DNA of 64,000 bases, taken from sequence record MT446416.1. One strand, written 5' to 3'. The DNA comes from Escherichia virus TH47. Made by a program: the position numbers and the translations under genes. The first letter of the stretch is position 1; each line of letters opens with the position of its first letter. Positions 4,371 to 13,503 of this stretch are shown piece after piece. The notes below the pieces were generated by a model that saw only the letters and a list, made by a program, of their open reading frames with translations, made no database searches and was not told the origin of the DNA.

Positions 4371-7067
4371 TTACCAATTGATTGTTCCTGTTTGTGACGG
4401 TAGACCATAACTAACTGGGAATGAAGAACCAGCAGCTTCAAGCGACGCACCGAAAATATCCAATCTTGAACGTTTTTGTATGTTAACATTTGATATTTGT
4501 AGTGAGTTTGTTTGTATAGTACCTATCCAGAAAATATTATATGCTGTAGTACCAGTCTCTGAAATAACATCAGTTGTTATTACATATTTTGCATTACCTT
4601 GTTCCATTTTAACATATACATGAAATAATGTGTTTGCCGGATTAGCCTTAACTGTAGTTAAGTTTATACTAGTAATAGGTAATGTAAATGCTTTACCAGA
4701 AAGAATTACTGGAGTTTCTTCTGTGAAGTACACAATAAAACCTTGAGCAACGTCTTGTGAAACTACGTTAATCGGTGCACCTTGAGCAGTCCAGTTATTA
4801 TAATCAGCAATTGTAGTACCACATTTTTGGAAAGTCATTTTGTTTACATAGTCTATTGCTTGGAAATAACCAAAACCAATACCAGGTAAAGCTGCTGGTT
4901 GAATACCTTGCTCATAACTTGCATGTGAACCACTGATAATAAAACTATCAAATTGTGCAGTTGCTTTTGTTACATATGCTCTGAATTGGTGTGTGTTTGT
5001 ATTACCAATAGTTGGGTGAGATAATGGGTCAGAACCACCTATGAAGTAGAAAGAACCACCATCATATATTGTTAAACCAACAGAAGACGATGCAAAACTA
5101 CCATTACCATTTGGTGTAAAGTTACTTCCGTAAACGTTTTCTAGTACTAAACGCTTGAAGGTAATTGTAGTGATATTACCTGAACGTGTATTCACATTCA
5201 CTTCAGCAATTCTAATATAGTTCTGATATGTATTTGTAACTGTACTTAGCATTACGAATGCAGGTATATCAGTTTGTTGTGGAACAAACAATGTCATATC
5301 TTTATAAGCAGCAGGAGATAAGTTCCAGTCGCTTAGTACTTTAGCGTATTCAGCATTTCTGAAATTATCAAGTACTGATTGAGTAACACTAATGATACCA
5401 GTTCCGTTCATATTTTTATCATATGATAGTGATTGGGAATATCTCTGACCTACCATGAATATCCCACCATTTGTAGTAACATTATTACCACTAATGGAAC
5501 TAATAAAAACTCTGTTGTTAGTGTTATCTGTCACATTAGCACGTTCTGTTGTTGGCTCATAACCTTGTATGGTTCCACGTGATAAAGAATTAAACGTAAA
5601 GTTAGGAGTACTTTTATGAACTGCATAAGATGGACGGAATGCACCAGAACCAGTTGAACGAGAATACTGTTTAGTACTGTTCCCTGGAAGCAATTCTACT
5701 CCGTTAATAAAAGAACCAACTGCTGAACCAAATGAAGGACGGACTATACCATTTCTGAAATCAGTTGAAATGTTCGCACGTACATTGATCATGCTATATA
5801 TTGATTGCGAAGTAAATTTAGCTTTCTGCATAAGTAATGGTTCTGCTAAGTTTGGACATGCAGTACAGAATACATCACCTGTATTCAGATAATAATATGA
5901 ACTGTAAATATTTCTTGCACCGTTATGGTCATATAACGGATCTTTGTTGAGAACATTACCAGTAGCAACCAATGCCGAACCTGTGTTTGTGACAACCAAT
6001 GGTGCAGCAAATGTACCAATATCGTTCCCAGTATCCAAGTTACATTGTTTAGTACTCATGTTAAAATTGAAACTATAACTATGCTGTGGTCGGGTATTGT
6101 AGTTTGCCATAGTGAACCATGCGTCACCATTCATTCTGAATCGGAAGTTCTGCGTTCCTGGCTCCTGAGCAACATATAAATCGATAGATGTCATATAAAT
6201 CCCCATACCAGCCAAATTTTGTGGTACATAGACATAGGGCTTATCAGCTATATTAGTTGAGTTAACATGGTCAGTAATGATTATATTATTCTGAGAAGTA
6301 TATGTAGTATTGTAAAAAGTTTTTGTTGTCCACCCCGTGATTCGGGTAGCAGTATAAGTACCGTTTGCAATATTCAACACAACACGAACAACAACAATCT
6401 GTAGTTTGTTATTTTCATTAAGGACGTTGAATACATAAACTGAACCGTCTTCTGCCATCATAGCATACTCAATCCCACCTTCAGGTGAAATATCAGCTTG
6501 GTTCACAAAAAGACCACTATGTTGTGTATCATCCAATGTACCATTCGTTACTGATATAAACAACCCATTAGTACTGGTAGATGTGTCATTGTAACGACCT
6601 AACAGTATTTTTGAATCGGTATTGTATAAACCAATAGCAACACGGTTTGCCCCGAAATAGCCAGGCTTATACTGACGGCTTGTATTAACAGTACGACTCA
6701 TATCGGTAACTGATAATGCGTTCGCTAGGTAAGAATAAAACAAACCTTCAACACTACCGTTTGTACCACTACGTAATAGTACTAATGTGCCATCGTTTTC
6801 TAAAAGTATTTTGTTTCTACGTTGGGATTGGTTTTCTGATGCACCATTAAAATCACCAGATACCCCAGCAGGTAGATAGTTATGTGTACCATAATGCGAG
6901 ATTGGAAGTAAACTAATTACATCAAGTAATTCTTCTTTGGAATATGTATCAATTTCCATATTACCATTAGCATCAAATACTTGATCATTGATGCCCTGTA
7001 CTGTTCTTTTCCCTTTAACTGTCACATTATGAGTGACGTCTAAGCCACCATATATTTTCTTTGACAT
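4371..7067 (-). CDS. tail-fibre-like structural protein (paralog 1, 898 aa)
   Basis: Same N-terminal and C-terminal modules as 1025-3754; AAGGGA Shine-Dalgarno upstream of the ATG. Confidence 0.6.
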   Translation of the reverse strand: MSKKIYGGLDVTHNVTVKGKRTVQGINDQVFDANGNMEIDTYSKEELLDVISLLPISHYGTHNYLPAGVSGDFNGASENQSQRRNKILLENDGTLVLLRSGTNGSVEGLFYSYLANALSVTDMSRTVNTSRQYKPGYFGANRVAIGLYNTDSKILLGRYNDTSTSTNGLFISVTNGTLDDTQHSGLFVNQADISPEGGIEYAMMAEDGSVYVFNVLNENNKLQIVVVRVVLNIANGTYTATRITGWTTKTFYNTTYTSQNNIIITDHVNSTNIADKPYVYVPQNLAGMGIYMTSIDLYVAQEPGTQNFRFRMNGDAWFTMANYNTRPQHSYSFNFNMSTKQCNLDTGNDIGTFAAPLVVTNTGSALVATGNVLNKDPLYDHNGARNIYSSYYYLNTGDVFCTACPNLAEPLLMQKAKFTSQSIYSMINVRANISTDFRNGIVRPSFGSAVGSFINGVELLPGNSTKQYSRSTGSGAFRPSYAVHKSTPNFTFNSLSRGTIQGYEPTTERANVTDNTNNRVFISSISGNNVTTNGGIFMVGQRYSQSLSYDKNMNGTGIISVTQSVLDNFRNAEYAKVLSDWNLSPAAYKDMTLFVPQQTDIPAFVMLSTVTNTYQNYIRIAEVNVNTRSGNITTITFKRLVLENVYGSNFTPNGNGSFASSSVGLTIYDGGSFYFIGGSDPLSHPTIGNTNTHQFRAYVTKATAQFDSFIISGSHASYEQGIQPAALPGIGFGYFQAIDYVNKMTFQKCGTTIADYNNWTAQGAPINVVSQDVAQGFIVYFTEETPVILSGKAFTLPITSINLTTVKANPANTLFHVYVKMEQGNAKYVITTDVISETGTTAYNIFWIGTIQTNSLQISNVNIQKRSRLDIFGASLEAAGSSFPVSYGLPSQTGTINW

Positions 7068-7100
7068 ACATATCCCTTGTAATTTAGATATTAGTTACTG

Positions 7101-7108
7101 TATTTATG
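7101..7108 (-). promoter_or_regulatory. candidate T4-late-type promoter (CATAAATA on the minus strand)
   Basis: Minus-strand CATAAATA about 35 nt upstream of the first tail-fibre ATG, between the nrdG terminator and the fibre operon; T4 late consensus is TATAAATA. Confidence 0.3.
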
Positions 7109-7116
7109 AATGTACT

Positions 7117-7137
7117 AAAAAAGCACCCATTGGGTGC
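7117..7137 (-). terminator. rho-independent terminator
   Basis: GCACCC-ATT-GGGTGC hairpin followed on the minus strand by TTTTTT; 7 nt after the nrdG stop. Confidence 0.55.
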
Positions 7138-7143
7138 TTGTGT

Positions 7144-7614
7144 TTAAAAGTCTTTATTTTTATATAAAATTCGTTGGTTATTTGAACCACGAAAAGGTAA
7201 TGTTAAATTCTTTTCTTCTGAAACAAATTTACCATCAACTAATACATCTAAGTACTGAAGAATGTCTTTAGCATGATTATCCATAATCTCTTCTAACGTA
7301 TATCCACTCCAGCACCAAATAGTTTTATTGGGATAAGTCTCTTTTACAATCTTACATAGTTCTAAAATTGTTTCTATGTTCTTTTTCATTAGAGGATCTC
7401 CACCAAGGAGGGATAATCCACTAACGTAAGGCTTACTGAGTTCAGCTAAAATTATATCAATTGTATCAGTACTGAACTCTTGTCCACTTCGGTAGTCCCA
7501 TGCATGTTCTGAGTAACATCCGGGGCATCCATGTGAACAACCGCTTACGAAAAGTGAACATCTAACACCTTCACCATTTATCAAATCATCTTTGAAAATT
7601 GCCATATAATTCAT
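7144..7614 (-). CDS. nrdG: anaerobic ribonucleotide reductase activating protein (radical SAM)
   Basis: N-terminal CSHGCPGCYS cysteine cluster (CxxxCxxC-type radical SAM motif); about 156 aa; adjacent to nrdD and grcA; ATGA start/stop overlap with the upstream gene. Confidence 0.85.
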   Translation of the reverse strand: MNYMAIFKDDLINGEGVRCSLFVSGCSHGCPGCYSEHAWDYRSGQEFSTDTIDIILAELSKPYVSGLSLLGGDPLMKKNIETILELCKIVKETYPNKTIWCWSGYTLEEIMDNHAKDILQYLDVLVDGKFVSEEKNLTLPFRGSNNQRILYKNKDF

Positions 7615-8597
7615 TTAATATTCCTTACTAGGTTATTTAAAATCTCCACATGGTTTTCATCATAACGTATTCTGATAAACTGTATATTATTGTCTATACA
7701 GAACTTTGTTTTTATATTGTCATTAATTTGTCTATTAATAAATTCTTTCTCCCCTCCCCAATGTTCAAAAATTTCATAATGTTGTTTACCATCATATTCT
7801 ATTAATATATTATAATCATTCAAATATATGTCAAATGGTAATTTTTGTTTGTTGTAACATTCAGGGAATTTTTTTTCTCGTTCAAAAGATATATTATTTT
7901 TTGTCAATATTTCAATTATATCATACATAGCTTTTGATGTGCTAGTATGTAACGCACACTCTGGGCATCCTCTTCCTGAGTTTAATGATGTTGGTGTAAT
8001 ATTAAATTCATGACCTTTTTCACAAATTGCAATACTAGGAGTTCTTACATTTATATATTTGAATTTATTAAAATTGTAATCTTTGAATTTATTATTTGAT
8101 TTTATTTTTGATATAAAATAATCTGAATCAATATTATGTTTTCTCCCATTTTTCATTTTACAAAGTTCACATCCAGTATTTCCTCTCAAGAAGGTTCTTG
8201 CTCTCAATGTTTTGGATTTTTTATGGATATTACACATAACTGTTATATTATCAACCATGCGAGTATAATCACTGATTAGTGTGAATTTATCTCCATAAAT
8301 TTTATTCATTTCTTGTATGAATTCATATTTTGATTTTGTTATTTTATTATCAGAACATTTTTTACAGCCCTTCCCACTTAAAAGTATATTTGGTGTTGAA
8401 TAAAAATCCGTTTTACATATGTTACAGTGGACATGTATTTTACATTGTGACCCGCCGTATTCATTTAAAAATGTGAATTTTTGTCCATGTATTAACAAAA
8501 TCTTATTAATGAATTCTTCATGTGTAAGTTTACGTGGCATTATTAAAACTCCTTTGACATTTGTGATGTTTATAAATGCCAAAGGGTATATCCTCAT
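7611..8597 (-). CDS. putative free-standing homing-endonuclease-like protein (zinc-ribbon repeats plus C-terminal DUF559/Vsr-like nuclease motif)
   Basis: Three L-x-x-G-x-G-C-x-x-C repeats and a C-terminal ...ILIEYDGKQHYE... motif; more AT-rich than its neighbours and contains no AGTACT. Confidence 0.45.
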   Translation of the reverse strand: MRIYPLAFINITNVKGVLIMPRKLTHEEFINKILLIHGQKFTFLNEYGGSQCKIHVHCNICKTDFYSTPNILLSGKGCKKCSDNKITKSKYEFIQEMNKIYGDKFTLISDYTRMVDNITVMCNIHKKSKTLRARTFLRGNTGCELCKMKNGRKHNIDSDYFISKIKSNNKFKDYNFNKFKYINVRTPSIAICEKGHEFNITPTSLNSGRGCPECALHTSTSKAMYDIIEILTKNNISFEREKKFPECYNKQKLPFDIYLNDYNILIEYDGKQHYEIFEHWGGEKEFINRQINDNIKTKFCIDNNIQFIRIRYDENHVEILNNLVRNIK

Positions 8598-8927
8598 TTA
8601 ATTATCGTCTGGTAATTCATCTAGTATTGCACTCACTATTTCAACGAGAACATCACCATGACATGATTTTGGTTTACAGAAACAACCAAGACGTTTCCCT
8701 GCTAATTCAAGTAAATCATCAATTTTAACTTCGCCATTAGAAATACGTTCAATTATGTATTCTCTGAACTTTTCGATTGATTCTTCCCTTGTAGCAACAA
8801 TGAACTCGGCCTTAGTCTGTTTATCATTGATATGGGTAAATGGGTTACCCCATTTAGACCCACGACCAATGTACACATCATACGGTTCTTTGTATTTGTT
8901 AACCACAATTGGCTTTAAATCCATCAA
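8598..8927 (-). CDS. DUF4326-family protein
   Basis: [12 protein letters not shown] ... [13 protein letters not shown] signature. Confidence 0.6.
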
Positions 8928-9283
8928 ATTTCCTTTGTAAAGGTACGAGAAATTACATCATCTTGTTGTTCTTTTGTTAGTGAATTGAAACGAACAGCAT
9001 AACCACTAACACGAATAGTAAGTTGCGGATACTTTTCTGGATTGTTTTGTGCATCAATGAGTTGTTCTTTAGATAAAACATTTACATTCAAATGTTGACC
9101 ACCCTCAATAACTGGTTCATGTTTGACCTGTACATCACGTAGAACCTCACCATCAAAAGTACTCAATAGTACTTCATCATCTTCGGAAAAAGTTTTAGAT
9201 ACTACAATTTTTACAACATCATCTTCTTTTAGAAAAATAGTACCACGATGTTCACCTGACATTACCTGTTTAGCTTCTAACAT
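8924..9283 (-). CDS. grcA: autonomous glycyl-radical cofactor (GrcA/YfiD-like)
   Basis: C-terminal ...[11 protein letters not shown]...[35 protein letters not shown] matches the glycyl-radical motif (RVSGYAV) and flanks as I recall them for E. coli GrcA; AAGGAG Shine-Dalgarno. Confidence 0.85.
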
Positions 9284-9351
9284 ATATTTCTCCTTAATTT
9301 TATTTCAGTGTTTTTTTAATATTCTATCATCAAACGATATTTTATAAACAA

Positions 9352-9386
9352 ATGAACAAAAAAAATAGATTCTTTGTTCATTTTTT
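9352..9386. terminator. hairpin with flanking T-runs (terminator-like, orientation ambiguous)
   Basis: ATGAACAAA / TTTGTTCAT 9-bp stem with a 12-nt A-rich loop, followed by TTTTTTC on the plus strand; lies between nrdD and grcA. Confidence 0.35.
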
Positions 9387-9404
9387 CATTTCATAATTAG
9401 TTTA

Positions 9405-9439
9405 CTCGATTTAATTTTAAATATTTATGTTAAATCGAG
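9405..9439. repeat. perfect 10-bp inverted repeat (CTCGATTTAA / TTAAATCGAG) with a 15-nt spacer
   Basis: Read directly from the sequence, 8 nt downstream of the nrdD stop; no T-run follows on the minus strand. Confidence 0.4.
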
Positions 9440-9446
9440 ACAATTA

Positions 9447-10331
9447 TTATAAATGGCGAATTCTCTGAATCACTTCATCTTGCTTTCCTTTATTGAATGG
9501 GCGACTATTTGGTGCACTAAGATATCCGCTAACTCTTCGAATAACTGACATAGATTTTTCATCTCTATTATTACAAACTGGACAGTGGAAACCGTTTTTA
9601 TCGACGCTGAATTCACCTTCAAAATTACATTTATGACAATGATCAACTGGCTGGTTTATTCCAAAATATGGAATTTTTTCATAGGCATAATTGATTAATG
9701 TTTCAAGTGCTTGAATGTTGTTTGTTAAGTTTGGTGTTTCGACATAGCTAATATTACCACCATTGCTTAGATAAGCAAAGTTTTCCTCATAATCCCACTT
9801 TTCAAAAGCAGAACTTTCAACCCATACTGGTTGATGGAATGAATTTGTAATATAATTACGTTTTAGTACTGAAGGGTACTTAGATTCGATGCAACGTGCA
9901 AATTTGTAGCAAAGTGACTCTGCTGGGGTTCCATATAGACTAAAAGCTATGTTACTCTCTTTTTTGAACTCATCGCATTTAACTTTCATATAATTCAGTA
10001 CTGACATACAAAACTCCTTACTGATAGAACCAGTGAGGATTTCTGAACATTCAACAAGTCCAACATAACCAATACTAATACTAGCATAACCATTGTAAAA
10101 TAGTTTGTCAATAGTTTCTTCTGCACCTAAACGTGCTAATGCACCTTCCATGAACAAAATTGGATTCTGTTTCGCTTTAGTGCCTTTTAAACGCTCTACA
10201 CGGTTCATCTGAGCACGATATGCAATATTCATATGCTCATCTATCTTATCAAAAAACTCTCCATCTGAGGCACTTTCAAGAGCAATTAACGGTAGGTTGA
10301 TTGAGACAACCATTTGTACCTTCACTTTCAT
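9447..10331 (-). CDS. nrdD: anaerobic ribonucleoside-triphosphate reductase, C-terminal exon (ORF extends into the intron; true exon probably begins near 10310)
   Basis: C-terminal zinc ribbon CHKCNFEG...CPVCNN followed by the glycyl-radical motif RRVSGYL; the first codons (MKVKVQM) are probably intron sequence. Confidence 0.8.
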   Translation of the reverse strand: MKVKVQMVVSINLPLIALESASDGEFFDKIDEHMNIAYRAQMNRVERLKGTKAKQNPILFMEGALARLGAEETIDKLFYNGYASISIGYVGLVECSEILTGSISKEFCMSVLNYMKVKCDEFKKESNIAFSLYGTPAESLCYKFARCIESKYPSVLKRNYITNSFHQPVWVESSAFEKWDYEENFAYLSNGGNISYVETPNLTNNIQALETLINYAYEKIPYFGINQPVDHCHKCNFEGEFSVDKNGFHCPVCNNRDEKSMSVIRRVSGYLSAPNSRPFNKGKQDEVIQRIRHL

Positions 10332-10354
10332 GAAGGATTAGAGTACACCATACT

Positions 10355-11194
10355 CTAACGAAGAGGAAATGACATATAACCAAGTTTATTTGATAGTTCT
10401 TTATATCCAGAACCGTTATTGATATTTGCAACAGTTTTTCTTCCTACATTTAAACATTTTGCAATTTCGGAATAATTTTTATCTGTATTAATTAGCATAT
10501 CAATAATCTTAGAAACTGTTTTAATAGAATGACGTTTTGATGAATTTTGTGGTTTAAAAATTGGGTATTCAAGTGATTTATTTCGATAGATTACTCCATT
10601 ATTAACATTACAAATGGTGACATTTGAAACATTATATATTTTTGCAATTTCTATACTAGAAACACCATTTCTTAATAACTCATAAATTGAATCTATATTA
10701 TCTTCAATCTTATTTCTTTTGTTATCTCTAATAGGGTATGTTTCATTTATTTGATACCAAGTTTCGCCACAATTTATATCACTAACACAGCCGTATGGGA
10801 CATTTAAAGTTTTTGCTATTTCTACAAATGAAAGATCTTTATGTGATTTGATATATTCTATAATTTTGATAGCATCAATTTCAGTTATTTTACTTCCATT
10901 GAAGGTTTGGTTACCACCTAATGTTGAGTTGTAACCATTCTTATAACTATCATAAATTTCAATATATTTTATTTCTTCATCATTAAGATTATTTAAATCA
11001 ATATTAGTTTTTAAAATTTGAAATGTAAAATTTTCAAAGCCAAATTTTTTAATAGCTTTACTAATACATGATTTTTCATCATTGTTGTTACAGTGTTCCA
11101 CCCATCTTTTCATCGGTGGATATAAAACAGTTTGTCCAATATAAACTTTATTAGTTACTATACACTCTATTTTATATATGCTTCCTTTTCTCAT
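10355..11194 (-). CDS. intron-encoded GIY-YIG homing endonuclease (I-TevII-like)
   Basis: N-terminal IYKIECIVTNKVYIGQT...W..H GIY-YIG motif; GGAGGA Shine-Dalgarno; lies inside the nrdD interruption. Confidence 0.75.
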   Translation of the reverse strand: MRKGSIYKIECIVTNKVYIGQTVLYPPMKRWVEHCNNNDEKSCISKAIKKFGFENFTFQILKTNIDLNNLNDEEIKYIEIYDSYKNGYNSTLGGNQTFNGSKITEIDAIKIIEYIKSHKDLSFVEIAKTLNVPYGCVSDINCGETWYQINETYPIRDNKRNKIEDNIDSIYELLRNGVSSIEIAKIYNVSNVTICNVNNGVIYRNKSLEYPIFKPQNSSKRHSIKTVSKIIDMLINTDKNYSEIAKCLNVGRKTVANINNGSGYKELSNKLGYMSFPLR

Positions 11195-11218
11195 TATATA
11201 TCCTCCATAAAATATTAT

Positions 11219-11226
11219 TTATGGAA
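11219..11226 (-). promoter_or_regulatory. candidate late-type promoter (CATAAATA) inside the intron, upstream of the homing endonuclease ORF
   Basis: Minus-strand CATAAATA about 24 nt upstream of the endonuclease ATG; same variant as upstream of the tail-fibre operon. Confidence 0.25.
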
Positions 11227-11456
11227 GTTTTAATATTAGAGTCACGTATTATACTCGTTGAACCTTCCACCATTCTAAAATGATAGCTTGGCTGCTGATT
11301 TCCCATTTTTTGTGCATATGAACTGATTTACAACTTTTCATATATCCATAATTCTTTTTTCTACTCTCGTAACATTCACGTTTATCTATTAAGATTGCGT
11401 TGTAGTGATTATGGCTTTAGGGGGTTCCAGCATGTTAACGTGTTTGCTATTACTGC

Positions 11457-12452
11457 TCACGCAGCAAAGGGGCATGTATGTCTACCCAAGTTGAAACGAC
11501 CGTTATATTGCTCATTTCCATTTGAATCTTCCCATTTTCCTAAGAATGAACGACAGCCCATCGGTGTTACAGCAGTGCTATTACTTCCCGTCACTTTGTG
11601 ATTTAATGGAACTGAAACAAAGTCTGGGTAGATTCTCTTCGATGCACAACGCATTGCCAACTGTTTCATGTCATAGTTGCAATCATCGCTATTCATGTTG
11701 ATTCCGTCCTGTAAAAAGAAAATTACTTTAGGAAACACTGGAGTAATCTTATCTTTGCCTAAACCATTCTCATGTACTTTTAAGTACTGTTCAGTGATTA
11801 ATTTGCCAAATTTTGAAGTATTCAGTCCTAAACTAAGAGAAATGAATGCTGCTTGTCCGTTTGTACTAATCATTGAATTTGTCTGGTAAAGTAAGGTTTG
11901 ACACCCATCATAGACTTCTTTTCGTAATTCTTCCTCAATGTATTCAGTACTGAGATTATATGCCTTTTGCTTCGCTAATAGCTTATCCCACGACTTTTGG
12001 ACGTAAGGTTCAAGACCAACGTCAATATGAGCCAATGATTGACCACCGTACTGGGAACTAGCAACAGCCTGAACAATTTGTGTCAGTACTGTACATGCTA
12101 CACTAAAACTCTTTGGTTCTTCAATTTTTGCACAACCAATGGTAAATCCATTTTTTAGCATATCTGGGTAGTTAACCAAGCAACAGTTAGTTAATGGGCT
12201 GATATAGTAGTCTAAATCATGAATGTGACCATAACCATCATTATGCCACTGCATTAGCTCCTTTGGAATAACATCTTGTGAATAATGTTTAGATAGGATA
12301 CCAGCAAGTAAATCCCTGTGTGTATTGACGCATTTCGCATCTTTGTTTGCATTTTCATTTGTAAGATCAGTATTGCTCTGATTTAGGAAATTTGTTACGT
12401 CAGTATATAATTTATCTAATTGCATTTTACTTTCCTTGTATTTTGAAATCAT
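11457..12452 (-). CDS. nrdD: anaerobic ribonucleoside-triphosphate reductase, N-terminal exon (ORF reads through into the intron; 5' splice site probably near 11484)
   Basis: ...PMGCRSFLGKWEDSNGNEQYNGRFNLG; continuity with the downstream exon ORF; the last 8 codons (RHTCPFAA) are probably intronic. Confidence 0.8.
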   Translation of the reverse strand: MISKYKESKMQLDKLYTDVTNFLNQSNTDLTNENANKDAKCVNTHRDLLAGILSKHYSQDVIPKELMQWHNDGYGHIHDLDYYISPLTNCCLVNYPDMLKNGFTIGCAKIEEPKSFSVACTVLTQIVQAVASSQYGGQSLAHIDVGLEPYVQKSWDKLLAKQKAYNLSTEYIEEELRKEVYDGCQTLLYQTNSMISTNGQAAFISLSLGLNTSKFGKLITEQYLKVHENGLGKDKITPVFPKVIFFLQDGINMNSDDCNYDMKQLAMRCASKRIYPDFVSVPLNHKVTGSNSTAVTPMGCRSFLGKWEDSNGNEQYNGRFNLGRHTCPFAA

Positions 12453-12563
12453 CTGGGGGTGAAGTTATTTAACATCACCAGACACCATTATAGCGTCAGA
12501 ACAGGGTATTTCTCTTGATCTATATCAAGGAAAGGTCACATTGCTTTTTATTTGCACAAATAG

Positions 12564-12584
12564 AAAAAGCACCTCTAGGGTGCT
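12564..12584 (-). terminator. rho-independent terminator
   Basis: AGCACC-loop-GGTGCT hairpin followed on the minus strand by TTTTT; between the small ORFs and the nrdD start. Confidence 0.5.
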
Positions 12585-12701
12585 TTAAAGTACTGCTAAT
12601 ATAAAAACTGCCCAAATTAGCAGTACTACATTGGTTGGAGCGGCAAAAAACATATATGCAGCAAGTGCACTGCATCCGATTACAAGTTTAGCTAGTCTCA
12701 T
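12585..12701 (-). CDS. small hydrophobic peptide (38 aa, MRLAKLVIGCSALAAYMFFAAPTNVVLLIWAVFILAVL)
   Basis: Not in the ORF track (below its size cutoff); ATG at 12699-12701; two predicted hydrophobic segments; contains a perfect 12-bp inverted repeat; a terminator follows immediately. Confidence 0.25.
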   Translation of the reverse strand: MRLAKLVIGCSALAAYMFFAAPTNVVLLIWAVFILAVL

Positions 12702-12873
12702 CTGGACTCCATGTAATAGTCACAGTAAATGTGCCTTCTTGGAAACCAAACTCATCTTGTGGGATTTGTCCAGCTAATGGGTTAAATCTTGAATCGAATG
12801 CTTCATGTACGTCTCGCTGAATATCATAGAGACTTTCACCATCGTATTCTTTTTTAAAGATTTCATTCTGCAT
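12688..12873 (-). CDS. hypothetical protein (61 aa)
   Basis: Minus-strand ORF in an operon-like array. Confidence 0.4.
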   Translation of the reverse strand: MQNEIFKKEYDGESLYDIQRDVHEAFDSRFNPLAGQIPQDEFGFQEGTFTVTITWSPDETS

Positions 12874-13273
12874 TTATACGTACCGACCCTCGTATTCTGT
12901 CTGGATATCCATCAAATAGATCAATGAATTGGTTTAACGCATAAGTACTGAAGAATGGATTATTCTTTGCAATTTCTATGCGTTTTTCAATATCCATTAA
13001 TATAATCTCTGGTCTACTGAAATTACCTTTACGTCTATATGTTAGTAAACGCTCTTTGTGTCCTCTGAACTGAAATTCAAAATATGTTGATGATGTGTAA
13101 TCACTTCCATCAGGAATCGGAATTGAAAAATCAACATTGTACTTATAACCAATTGCGAAAAAATAACCACCATCTTCTAACGGTATAGTTGCATCATTTA
13201 GATGAAAATCGATTTCATCTCCTAACATATCAAATATTTTGGTACTTAGAGACATAAAATCATCGACTAACAT
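12863..13273 (-). CDS. hypothetical protein
   Basis: 136-aa ORF, packed with neighbours. Confidence 0.5.
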   Translation of the reverse strand: MLVDDFMSLSTKIFDMLGDEIDFHLNDATIPLEDGGYFFAIGYKYNVDFSIPIPDGSDYTSSTYFEFQFRGHKERLLTYRRKGNFSRPEIILMDIEKRIEIAKNNPFFSTYALNQFIDLFDGYPDRIRGSVRINAE

Positions 13274-13284
13274 GTCTTTTTACC

Positions 13285-13503
13285 TTATCTTATAACTCGA
13301 CAGTAGTACTGAATAATGTAAGGAAATAAAGGATTATTTACGTATGTTGCAAAATTAGCTATTGTAACTTTTTTATAGTAAAAGTTGTGAATTGTTATAA
13401 TAGTGTGAGGATCTATTGAATCTCTATTAGAGAGTTCAACATAACGCCCACACTTCATATAAGCCTTACCATAATAATCGTAAATTATATCGTATTTTTC
13501 CAT
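13285..13503 (-). CDS. hypothetical protein
   Basis: 72-aa ORF. Confidence 0.45.
   Translation of the reverse strand: MEKYDIIYDYYGKAYMKCGRYVELSNRDSIDPHTIITIHNFYYKKVTIANFATYVNNPLFPYIIQYYCRVIR

Follow-up and report, generated by a model that had tools for sequence, protein, structure and literature searches.

A probable spare-part glycyl-radical protein of the phage Y06I/vs.6 family, encoded between nrdD and nrdG in Escherichia virus TH47

Two small proteins, Y06I of phage T4 (also known as vs.6) and YfiD of E. coli, have been validated as spare parts for pyruvate formate-lyase (PFL), which is a glycyl-radical enzyme. After a radical has been installed on them by the activase PFL-AE, they restore PFL that has been cleaved by O2 (Wagner et al. 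2001, as related in PMC8683613). Residues 61–127 of YfiD duplicate residues 693–759 of PFL, and residues 1–60 are disordered, yet required for binding to cleaved PFL and for efficient activation (PMC8683613). Here, we describe a homologue of these proteins in Escherichia virus TH47, encoded by a grcA-like gene in a 64,000-nucleotide stretch of sequence record MT446416.1 (hereafter the window). The protein is an ordinary member of the already characterised phage family Y06I/vs.6 (phrog_1209), of a kind known since 2001, and is probably a functional spare part that rescues the PFL of the host. The gene and its parts are located in the window as follows:

8924..9283, minus strand: grcA-like gene (phage Y06I/vs.6 family), an ATG-to-stop open reading frame (ORF) of 119 amino acids (aa) plus TGA
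9290..9295, minus strand: Shine-Dalgarno sequence AAGGAG, 6 nt 5' of the grcA ATG, read from the sequence
9128..9283, minus strand: N-terminal half (aa 1–52), phage-type, with a motif common to jumbo-phage and T4-like homologues
8927..9127, minus strand: C-terminal glycyl-radical domain (aa 53–119), corresponding to YfiD 61–127 and PFL 693–759 (HMMER, Foldseek)
8993..9013, minus strand: glycyl-radical loop RVSGYAV (aa 91–97), identical to the G734 loop of PFL
9002..9004, minus strand: radical glycine G94, invariant in 52 homologues

An earlier note, made from the sequence alone, had described the product as a 119-aa stand-alone glycyl-radical protein resembling GrcA/YfiD. This description was borne out by the searches, in which the matches to Pfam and to PflB and GrcA were far beyond chance. 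The protein scored 64.9 bits against the Pfam Gly_radical family (PF01228; cut-off 22.2), and the closest solved structures found by sequence (HMMER) were residues 669–758 of E. coli PflB (E = 2e-30) and GrcA/YfiD (PDB 6owr, E = 1e-29). Over its last 60 aa, identity to the C-termini of the host proteins was 80% for PflB and 78% for GrcA of E. coli. The C-terminus as quoted in the note matched the ORF, except that the window reads IEGGQ, VEGGQ having the E. coli GrcA residue. Among the 52 homologues, loop residues R91, S93, G94, Y95 and A96 were invariant, and V92 and V97 nearly so. The phrog_1209 profile was matched from end to end, with residues 2–119 aligned to positions 1–121 of 121 (E = 2e-51). 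The phage-type N-terminal motif of the family, Q-I/V-x-x-G-x-H-x-G-T-I ... A-R-I-I-V-S-K-T-F by the alignment and the 52-sequence consensus, was present in aa 1–52, in the form Q-V-M-S-G-E-H-x-G-T-I ... (A/V)-(R/K)-I-(I/V).

Purifying selection acts on the gene, which is intact. The ratio of nonsynonymous to synonymous substitutions (dN/dS, by the Nei-Gojobori method) relative to its jumbo-phage orthologues was 0.03 for UE-S1, 0.11 for ph0011, 0.21–0.22 for K64-1 and Munch, and 0.29 for fHe-Yen9-04. The length of the protein varied between 119 and 122 aa across the phage groups examined.

A model of the protein was generated with AlphaFold2 from an alignment made deeper with 150 HMMER representatives, which served no other purpose, and had a mean predicted local distance difference test (pLDDT) score of 82. 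Residues 1–50 were predicted to form a five-strand β domain (block-mean pLDDT 89–94), for which Foldseek gave a weak match to a KOW/SH3-like fold (E = 0.027). The top Foldseek matches for the C-terminal domain of the model were the nuclear magnetic resonance (NMR) structure of YfiD (6owr) and PFL (1cm5/2pfl).

Homologues were detected by tblastn in 1,587 of 50,697 phage records, including T4-like phages (vs.6), T5-like phages and RaK2-like jumbo phages, and many of these records carry the annotation "autonomous glycyl radical cofactor GrcA". The window protein shares 99.2% identity with the product of a gene annotated "pyruvate formate-lyase" in Escherichia phage UE-S1 (Asteriusvirus, 358 kb), and an identical GrcA protein is already present in public collections, on metagenomic contigs of up to 352 kb. 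The window is therefore part of a RaK2-like jumbo phage of E. coli. Nothing relevant on the GrcA of jumbo phages or of Asteriusvirus was found in the open-access literature searched.

The protein resembles T4 Y06I in its overall design: both are stand-alone proteins of about 120 aa that combine a phage-type N-terminus (xKAxQIxxGxHxGTI...ARIIVSKTF) with an RVSGYAV domain and belong to phrog_1209. The overall identity between the window protein and T4-like vs.6 is 55–61%. The two differ in genomic setting, since the gene lies within a vs.7-vs.6-vs.5 block, far from nrdD and nrdG, in the T4-like phages examined, whereas the window gene is located inside an nrd run. They also differ in the C-terminal core (C-core), which is host-derived in the T4-like phages (93–100% nt identity per 30-nt block to host grcA, in RB14 to that of E. 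coli), but has diverged to a phage-like composition in the window gene. The T5-like GrcA-like proteins (Epseptimavirus/Markadamsvirinae; e.g., AGC_0060 of Eps7) are 122 aa long, with a C-core that is 82–83% identical to that of the window protein and a common signature, LS(K/R)(E/D)QL.DAQ ... DVISRTFT. Their N-terminal region is only 29–31% identical, however, and the gene is found among early hypothetical genes and not by the nrd genes.

E. coli GrcA (TIGR04365, 6owr) is likewise a small stand-alone protein, with the same loop and the same fold of the structured domain in addition to the similar C-terminal 60 aa, but the window protein is 8 aa shorter and its N-terminal half is only 24% identical. 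With the C-terminal domains of PflB and TdcE, the identity over the last 60 aa is 80% and 75%, respectively. The PflB-type sequences NPEKYP and LTKEQQ are present in the window protein and absent from GrcA, and the homology reaches back to PflB residue 669. PflB itself is a 760-aa enzyme, whereas the window protein is autonomous, with 119 aa and no catalytic Cys418/Cys419 barrel.

These comparisons suggest a mechanism like that described for Y06I and YfiD. Traces of O2 would cleave the host PFL at its radical glycine, G734, and the C-terminal domain of the phage protein (aa 53–119, including RVSGYAV and G94) would substitute for the C-terminus that PFL has lost, with the N-terminal half possibly aiding its docking on the cleaved enzyme. 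The radical would then be put on G94 by a radical-SAM activase, in all likelihood the PflA of the host, bringing back PFL activity.

The location of grcA bears on what the restored PFL might be used for. The gene is surrounded by the following features:

11484..12452, minus strand: nrdD exon 1, N-terminal part of the class III ribonucleotide reductase (RNR); Pfam NRDD 1–283 of 562, boundary by blastn against UE-S1
10311..11483, minus strand: nrdD insertion, intron-like, 1,173 nt, a precise insertion relative to UE-S1 (blastn)
10355..11194, minus strand: GIY-YIG homing endonuclease gene in the nrdD insertion; TIGR01453 "group I intron endonuclease", 58.9 against a cut-off of 56.05
9447..10310, minus strand: nrdD exon 2, C-terminal part with the glycyl loop RRVSGYLS; Pfam NRDD 280–562 and Gly_radical
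9284..9446, minus strand: nrdD-grcA spacer of 163 nt with two hairpins and a promoter-like site; minimum free energy -28.1 kcal/mol, z = -3.3
8598..8924, minus strand: DUF4326 gene; Pfam PF14216, 86 bits; phrog_464
7611..8597, minus strand: free-standing homing-endonuclease-like ORF of 328 aa; phrog_559 "HNH endonuclease", E = 2e-67
7144..7614, minus strand: nrdG, the radical-SAM activase of NrdD; Pfam Fer4_12 (175 bits) and Radical_SAM
7121..7139, minus strand: intrinsic-terminator-like hairpin after nrdG, with a T tract behind its 8-bp stem (5 GC pairs)

All genes of the stretch from nrdD to nrdG are on the minus strand. The earlier note had placed grcA adjacent to both nrdD and nrdG. This is true of nrdD, which ends 163 nt upstream, but nrdG is two genes away, with the DUF4326 gene and the 328-aa ORF in between. 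The order nrdD-grcA-(inserts)-nrdG is kept in each of the four jumbo-phage lineages examined: Asteriusvirus (UE-S1, ph0011 and the metagenomic contigs with the identical GrcA), Alcyoneusvirus (K64-1), Eneladusvirus (fHe-Yen9-04) and Salmonella phage Munch, in which no other gene separates grcA from nrdD or nrdG, and grcA overlaps the start of nrdG.

PFL is the cell's source of formate, and from this, the use of formate by class III RNR and the conserved nrdD-grcA-nrdG order we infer a functional coupling. In the RaK2-like jumbo phages, grcA would be co-expressed with the class III reductase, and the PFL thus kept alive would supply formate as a reductant for this enzyme, along with acetyl-CoA and ATP, during infection under micro-oxic or anaerobic conditions. 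Most of the class III RNRs that have been characterised use formate as their reductant, and T4 NrdD is taken to have it as its cofactor (PMC4493059).

Several observations weigh against a role as a PFL spare part coupled to the reductase. Against the TIGR04365 GrcA equivalog, the protein scored 125.2 bits, below the cut-off of 170, with aa 25–118 aligned to positions 30–125. Its N-terminal half was only 17–24% identical to those of 16 bacterial GrcAs, and is thus not of the bacterial type. Furthermore, the N-terminal half of E. coli YfiD is disordered by NMR, whereas that of the phage protein is predicted to be folded, and given this divergent, predicted-folded half, docking on cleaved PFL could differ from that of YfiD. 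The difference in the N-terminus is no argument against function, however, because the N-terminus of T4 Y06I is of this same phage type, and that protein functions with the PFL and PFL-AE of E. coli. In the T4-like phage RB14 and the T5-like phage Eps7, grcA is not near the nrd genes; linkage to nrd is not required for function, because T4-like and T5-like phages keep grcA far from these genes. Co-transcription of nrdD and grcA is also not certain, given the 163-nt hairpin-containing spacer between them. In this spacer, the stop codon of nrdD is immediately followed by a 10-bp stem; then come a 14-bp A/U-rich stem and an extended -10-like site (TTTATA-16-TAGAAT, 9348..9321) after the second hairpin; it is also found in UE-S1, whereas ph0011, K64-1 and Munch have about 10 nt between nrdD and grcA. 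Finally, the open-access literature searched contained no mention of phage GrcA and NrdD being connected through formate.

In a more far-reaching version, nrdD, grcA and nrdG would constitute a single anaerobic deoxyribonucleoside triphosphate (dNTP) module, in which PFL kept working by GrcA feeds formate to the reductase, NrdG instead of the host PflA may radicalise both NrdD and GrcA, as both have an RVSGY loop, and the phage-specific N-terminal β domain serves as an adaptor for this changed partnership. We regard such a module as rather unlikely. If true, it would not depend on the repair system of the host.

The earlier note had left the target as either PFL or NrdD itself. Of the two, rescue of PFL is the better supported, by the Y06I precedent and by the 80% identity to PflB. 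It is improbable that the protein is a spare part or radical partner for the phage NrdD, or that it is radicalised by the phage NrdG instead of the host PflA, although the gene is found between nrdD and nrdG in every jumbo lineage examined, and spare parts for other glycyl-radical enzymes have been speculated upon (PMC8683613). The NrdD loop reads RRVSGYL in the window and in the five relatives read, and thus shares RVSGY with GrcA and PFL. However, when the protein was compared with the C-terminal half of its own NrdD, only 24 of 80 gapped positions were identical (30%), with 26% gaps (E = 5e-4), and the GrcA-like protein has no counterpart of the Cys-rich segment (HCHKC...HCPVC) found ahead of the glycyl loop in NrdD. 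The best Foldseek matches are YfiD and PFL, and T4 Y06I is activated by PFL-AE, whereas activation by NrdG is pure conjecture. The protein thus mimics PFL and not the C-terminus of the phage NrdD. The phage NrdD, a close homologue of T4 NrdD, keeps the active-site segments TNCC and MGCRSF.

The high similarity to the host protein had been taken in the earlier note to imply recent capture, in which case grcA would be an enterobacterial gene that resembles the host gene for that reason. The 78% identity of the C-terminal 60 aa to E. coli GrcA would agree with such an origin, and host-to-phage exchange at this locus does occur: in RB14, a T4-like phage that served as a positive control, the C-core of vs.6 is host-derived, with 100% aa and 97% nt identity to E. 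coli grcA and a dS of 0.15, and has a GC content of 49%, compared to 32% in its own N-terminal part. For the window gene, the comparisons gave the opposite result and refute recent capture. Over the 60 codons of the C-core, 78% aa identity to E. coli grcA is accompanied by only 67% nt identity; the same codon is used at 45% of the conserved residues, and synonymous sites are saturated (pS 0.77–0.79). A search of 5,426 complete genomes of E. coli gave an alignment over only 172 nt, in the 3' half of the gene, at 69–70% identity. The GC content of the window gene is 33% in both halves, as in the window as a whole (33.7%), and 14% at third codon positions (GC3), whereas E. coli grcA has a GC content of 48% and a GC3 of 41%.

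The bacterial proteins also form a group of their own. Over 127 aa, the GrcAs of 80 species (Enterobacterales, Pasteurellaceae and allies) have 81–100% identity to that of E. coli, whereas the overall identity between the window protein and bacterial GrcAs is about 50% (17–24% in the N-terminal part and 78–80% in the C-core). Neighbour-joining analysis (300 bootstraps) recovered bacterial GrcA as monophyletic at 100%, and the window protein fell outside it, in a jumbo-phage clade (80%), together with two other Asteriusvirus copies at 100%. A tree made from the N-terminal part alone was not resolved, the jumbo clade having a bootstrap value of 3%. Orthologues occupy the same slot in the four jumbo-phage lineages, with dS values of 0.7–1.2. 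Thus, the sequence comparisons identify the window grcA as an old phage gene of ancient phage ancestry and not a recent theft from the host. Constraint is the best explanation for the highly similar aa sequence of the C-core, since this domain would need to fit into the PFL of the host and to be accepted by the activase.

The T4-like vs.6 genes are mosaics, with a phage-like N-terminal part (GC 32–36%) and a host-like sequence (GC 49–56%) from the EGGQHL codons on. In the T4-like Klebsiella phage phi1_146043, the C-core has a GC content of 56% and is nearest to Klebsiella grcA. The vs.6 sequences suggest repeated recombination with host grcA. Recent host exchange is plain in these genes and is therefore visible where it happened, which is not the case for the window gene.

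Lastly, the idea that grcA is a non-functional remnant, the C-terminal piece of a decayed pflB or nrdD, which the earlier note had itself raised, can be dismissed: the homology to PflB is limited to residues 669–758 and several GenBank records name the gene "pyruvate formate-lyase", but it has its own ATG and a strong Shine-Dalgarno sequence, matches the 121-position phage profile from end to end, is conserved in length with a dN/dS (0.03–0.29) well under 1, has homologues in 1,587 phage records, and is preceded on its 5' side by a complete nrdD, with no pflB-like sequence there.

The nrdD gene itself is interrupted by an intron-like insertion, which neither UE-S1 nor the contigs with the identical GrcA have. 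The last letter of the upstream exon is T, and that of the insertion is G. When joined, the exons encode a continuous NrdD of 610 aa that matches T4 NrdD (PDB 1h78) with E = 9e-165, and the junction (NLG|VVS) lies two codons past the equivalent of T4 N311. The first ~240 nt of the insertion show ~70% similarity to a stretch inside the nrdD annotated in Vibrio phage PWH3a-P1 and to regions of Staphylococcus phages that are either unannotated or in structural genes. An Rfam search found no group I intron in 6500..13500 (E ≤ 0.1) or in the insertion alone (E ≤ 10); the chance-level matches were mir-1255, at the second hairpin of the spacer, a CRISPR repeat and DGCR5. The borders of the insertion contain in-frame stop and ATG codons, and nrdD may instead be a gene in two pieces.

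Downstream, the DUF4326 gene begins within the grcA stop codon (TGATG); it is translationally coupled to grcA and has a weak match (E = 5e-10) to a phrog labelled "ribonucleotide reductase NrdA-like". A DUF4326 gene is located between grcA and nrdG in UE-S1, ph0011 and K64-1 (Asteriusvirus and Alcyoneusvirus), but not in Munch. The 328-aa ORF that follows is probably a free-standing homing endonuclease. It has zinc-finger-like repeats, matches to homing-endonuclease families, and a GC content of 26%, and it is part of an insertion of ~974 bp (about 7623..8596) that is absent from UE-S1, ph0011, K64-1, Munch and the contigs with the identical GrcA. A terminator is annotated in the UE-S1 record at the same place as the hairpin 3' of nrdG. 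Beyond it is an ORF of 898 aa (4371..7067, minus strand), with ~76% nt identity to its UE-S1 counterpart, compared to 92–96% in the nrdD-grcA region. This ORF is hypothetical in relatives, and the neighbouring position in K64-1 is annotated as a tail protein.

As a discovery, the TH47 protein carries little weight, since phage GrcA has been biochemically characterised since 2001 and is annotated in many phage genomes. Its amino acid similarity to host GrcA and PFL would reflect a functional constraint rather than recent transfer. The fixed position of grcA between nrdD and nrdG in the jumbo lineages examined suggests a testable coupling, in which formate from PFL would be passed to the class III RNR. 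Together, the T4-like phages, with their host-derived C-core, and the jumbo phages provide a natural comparison of how phages stay compatible with a host enzyme.

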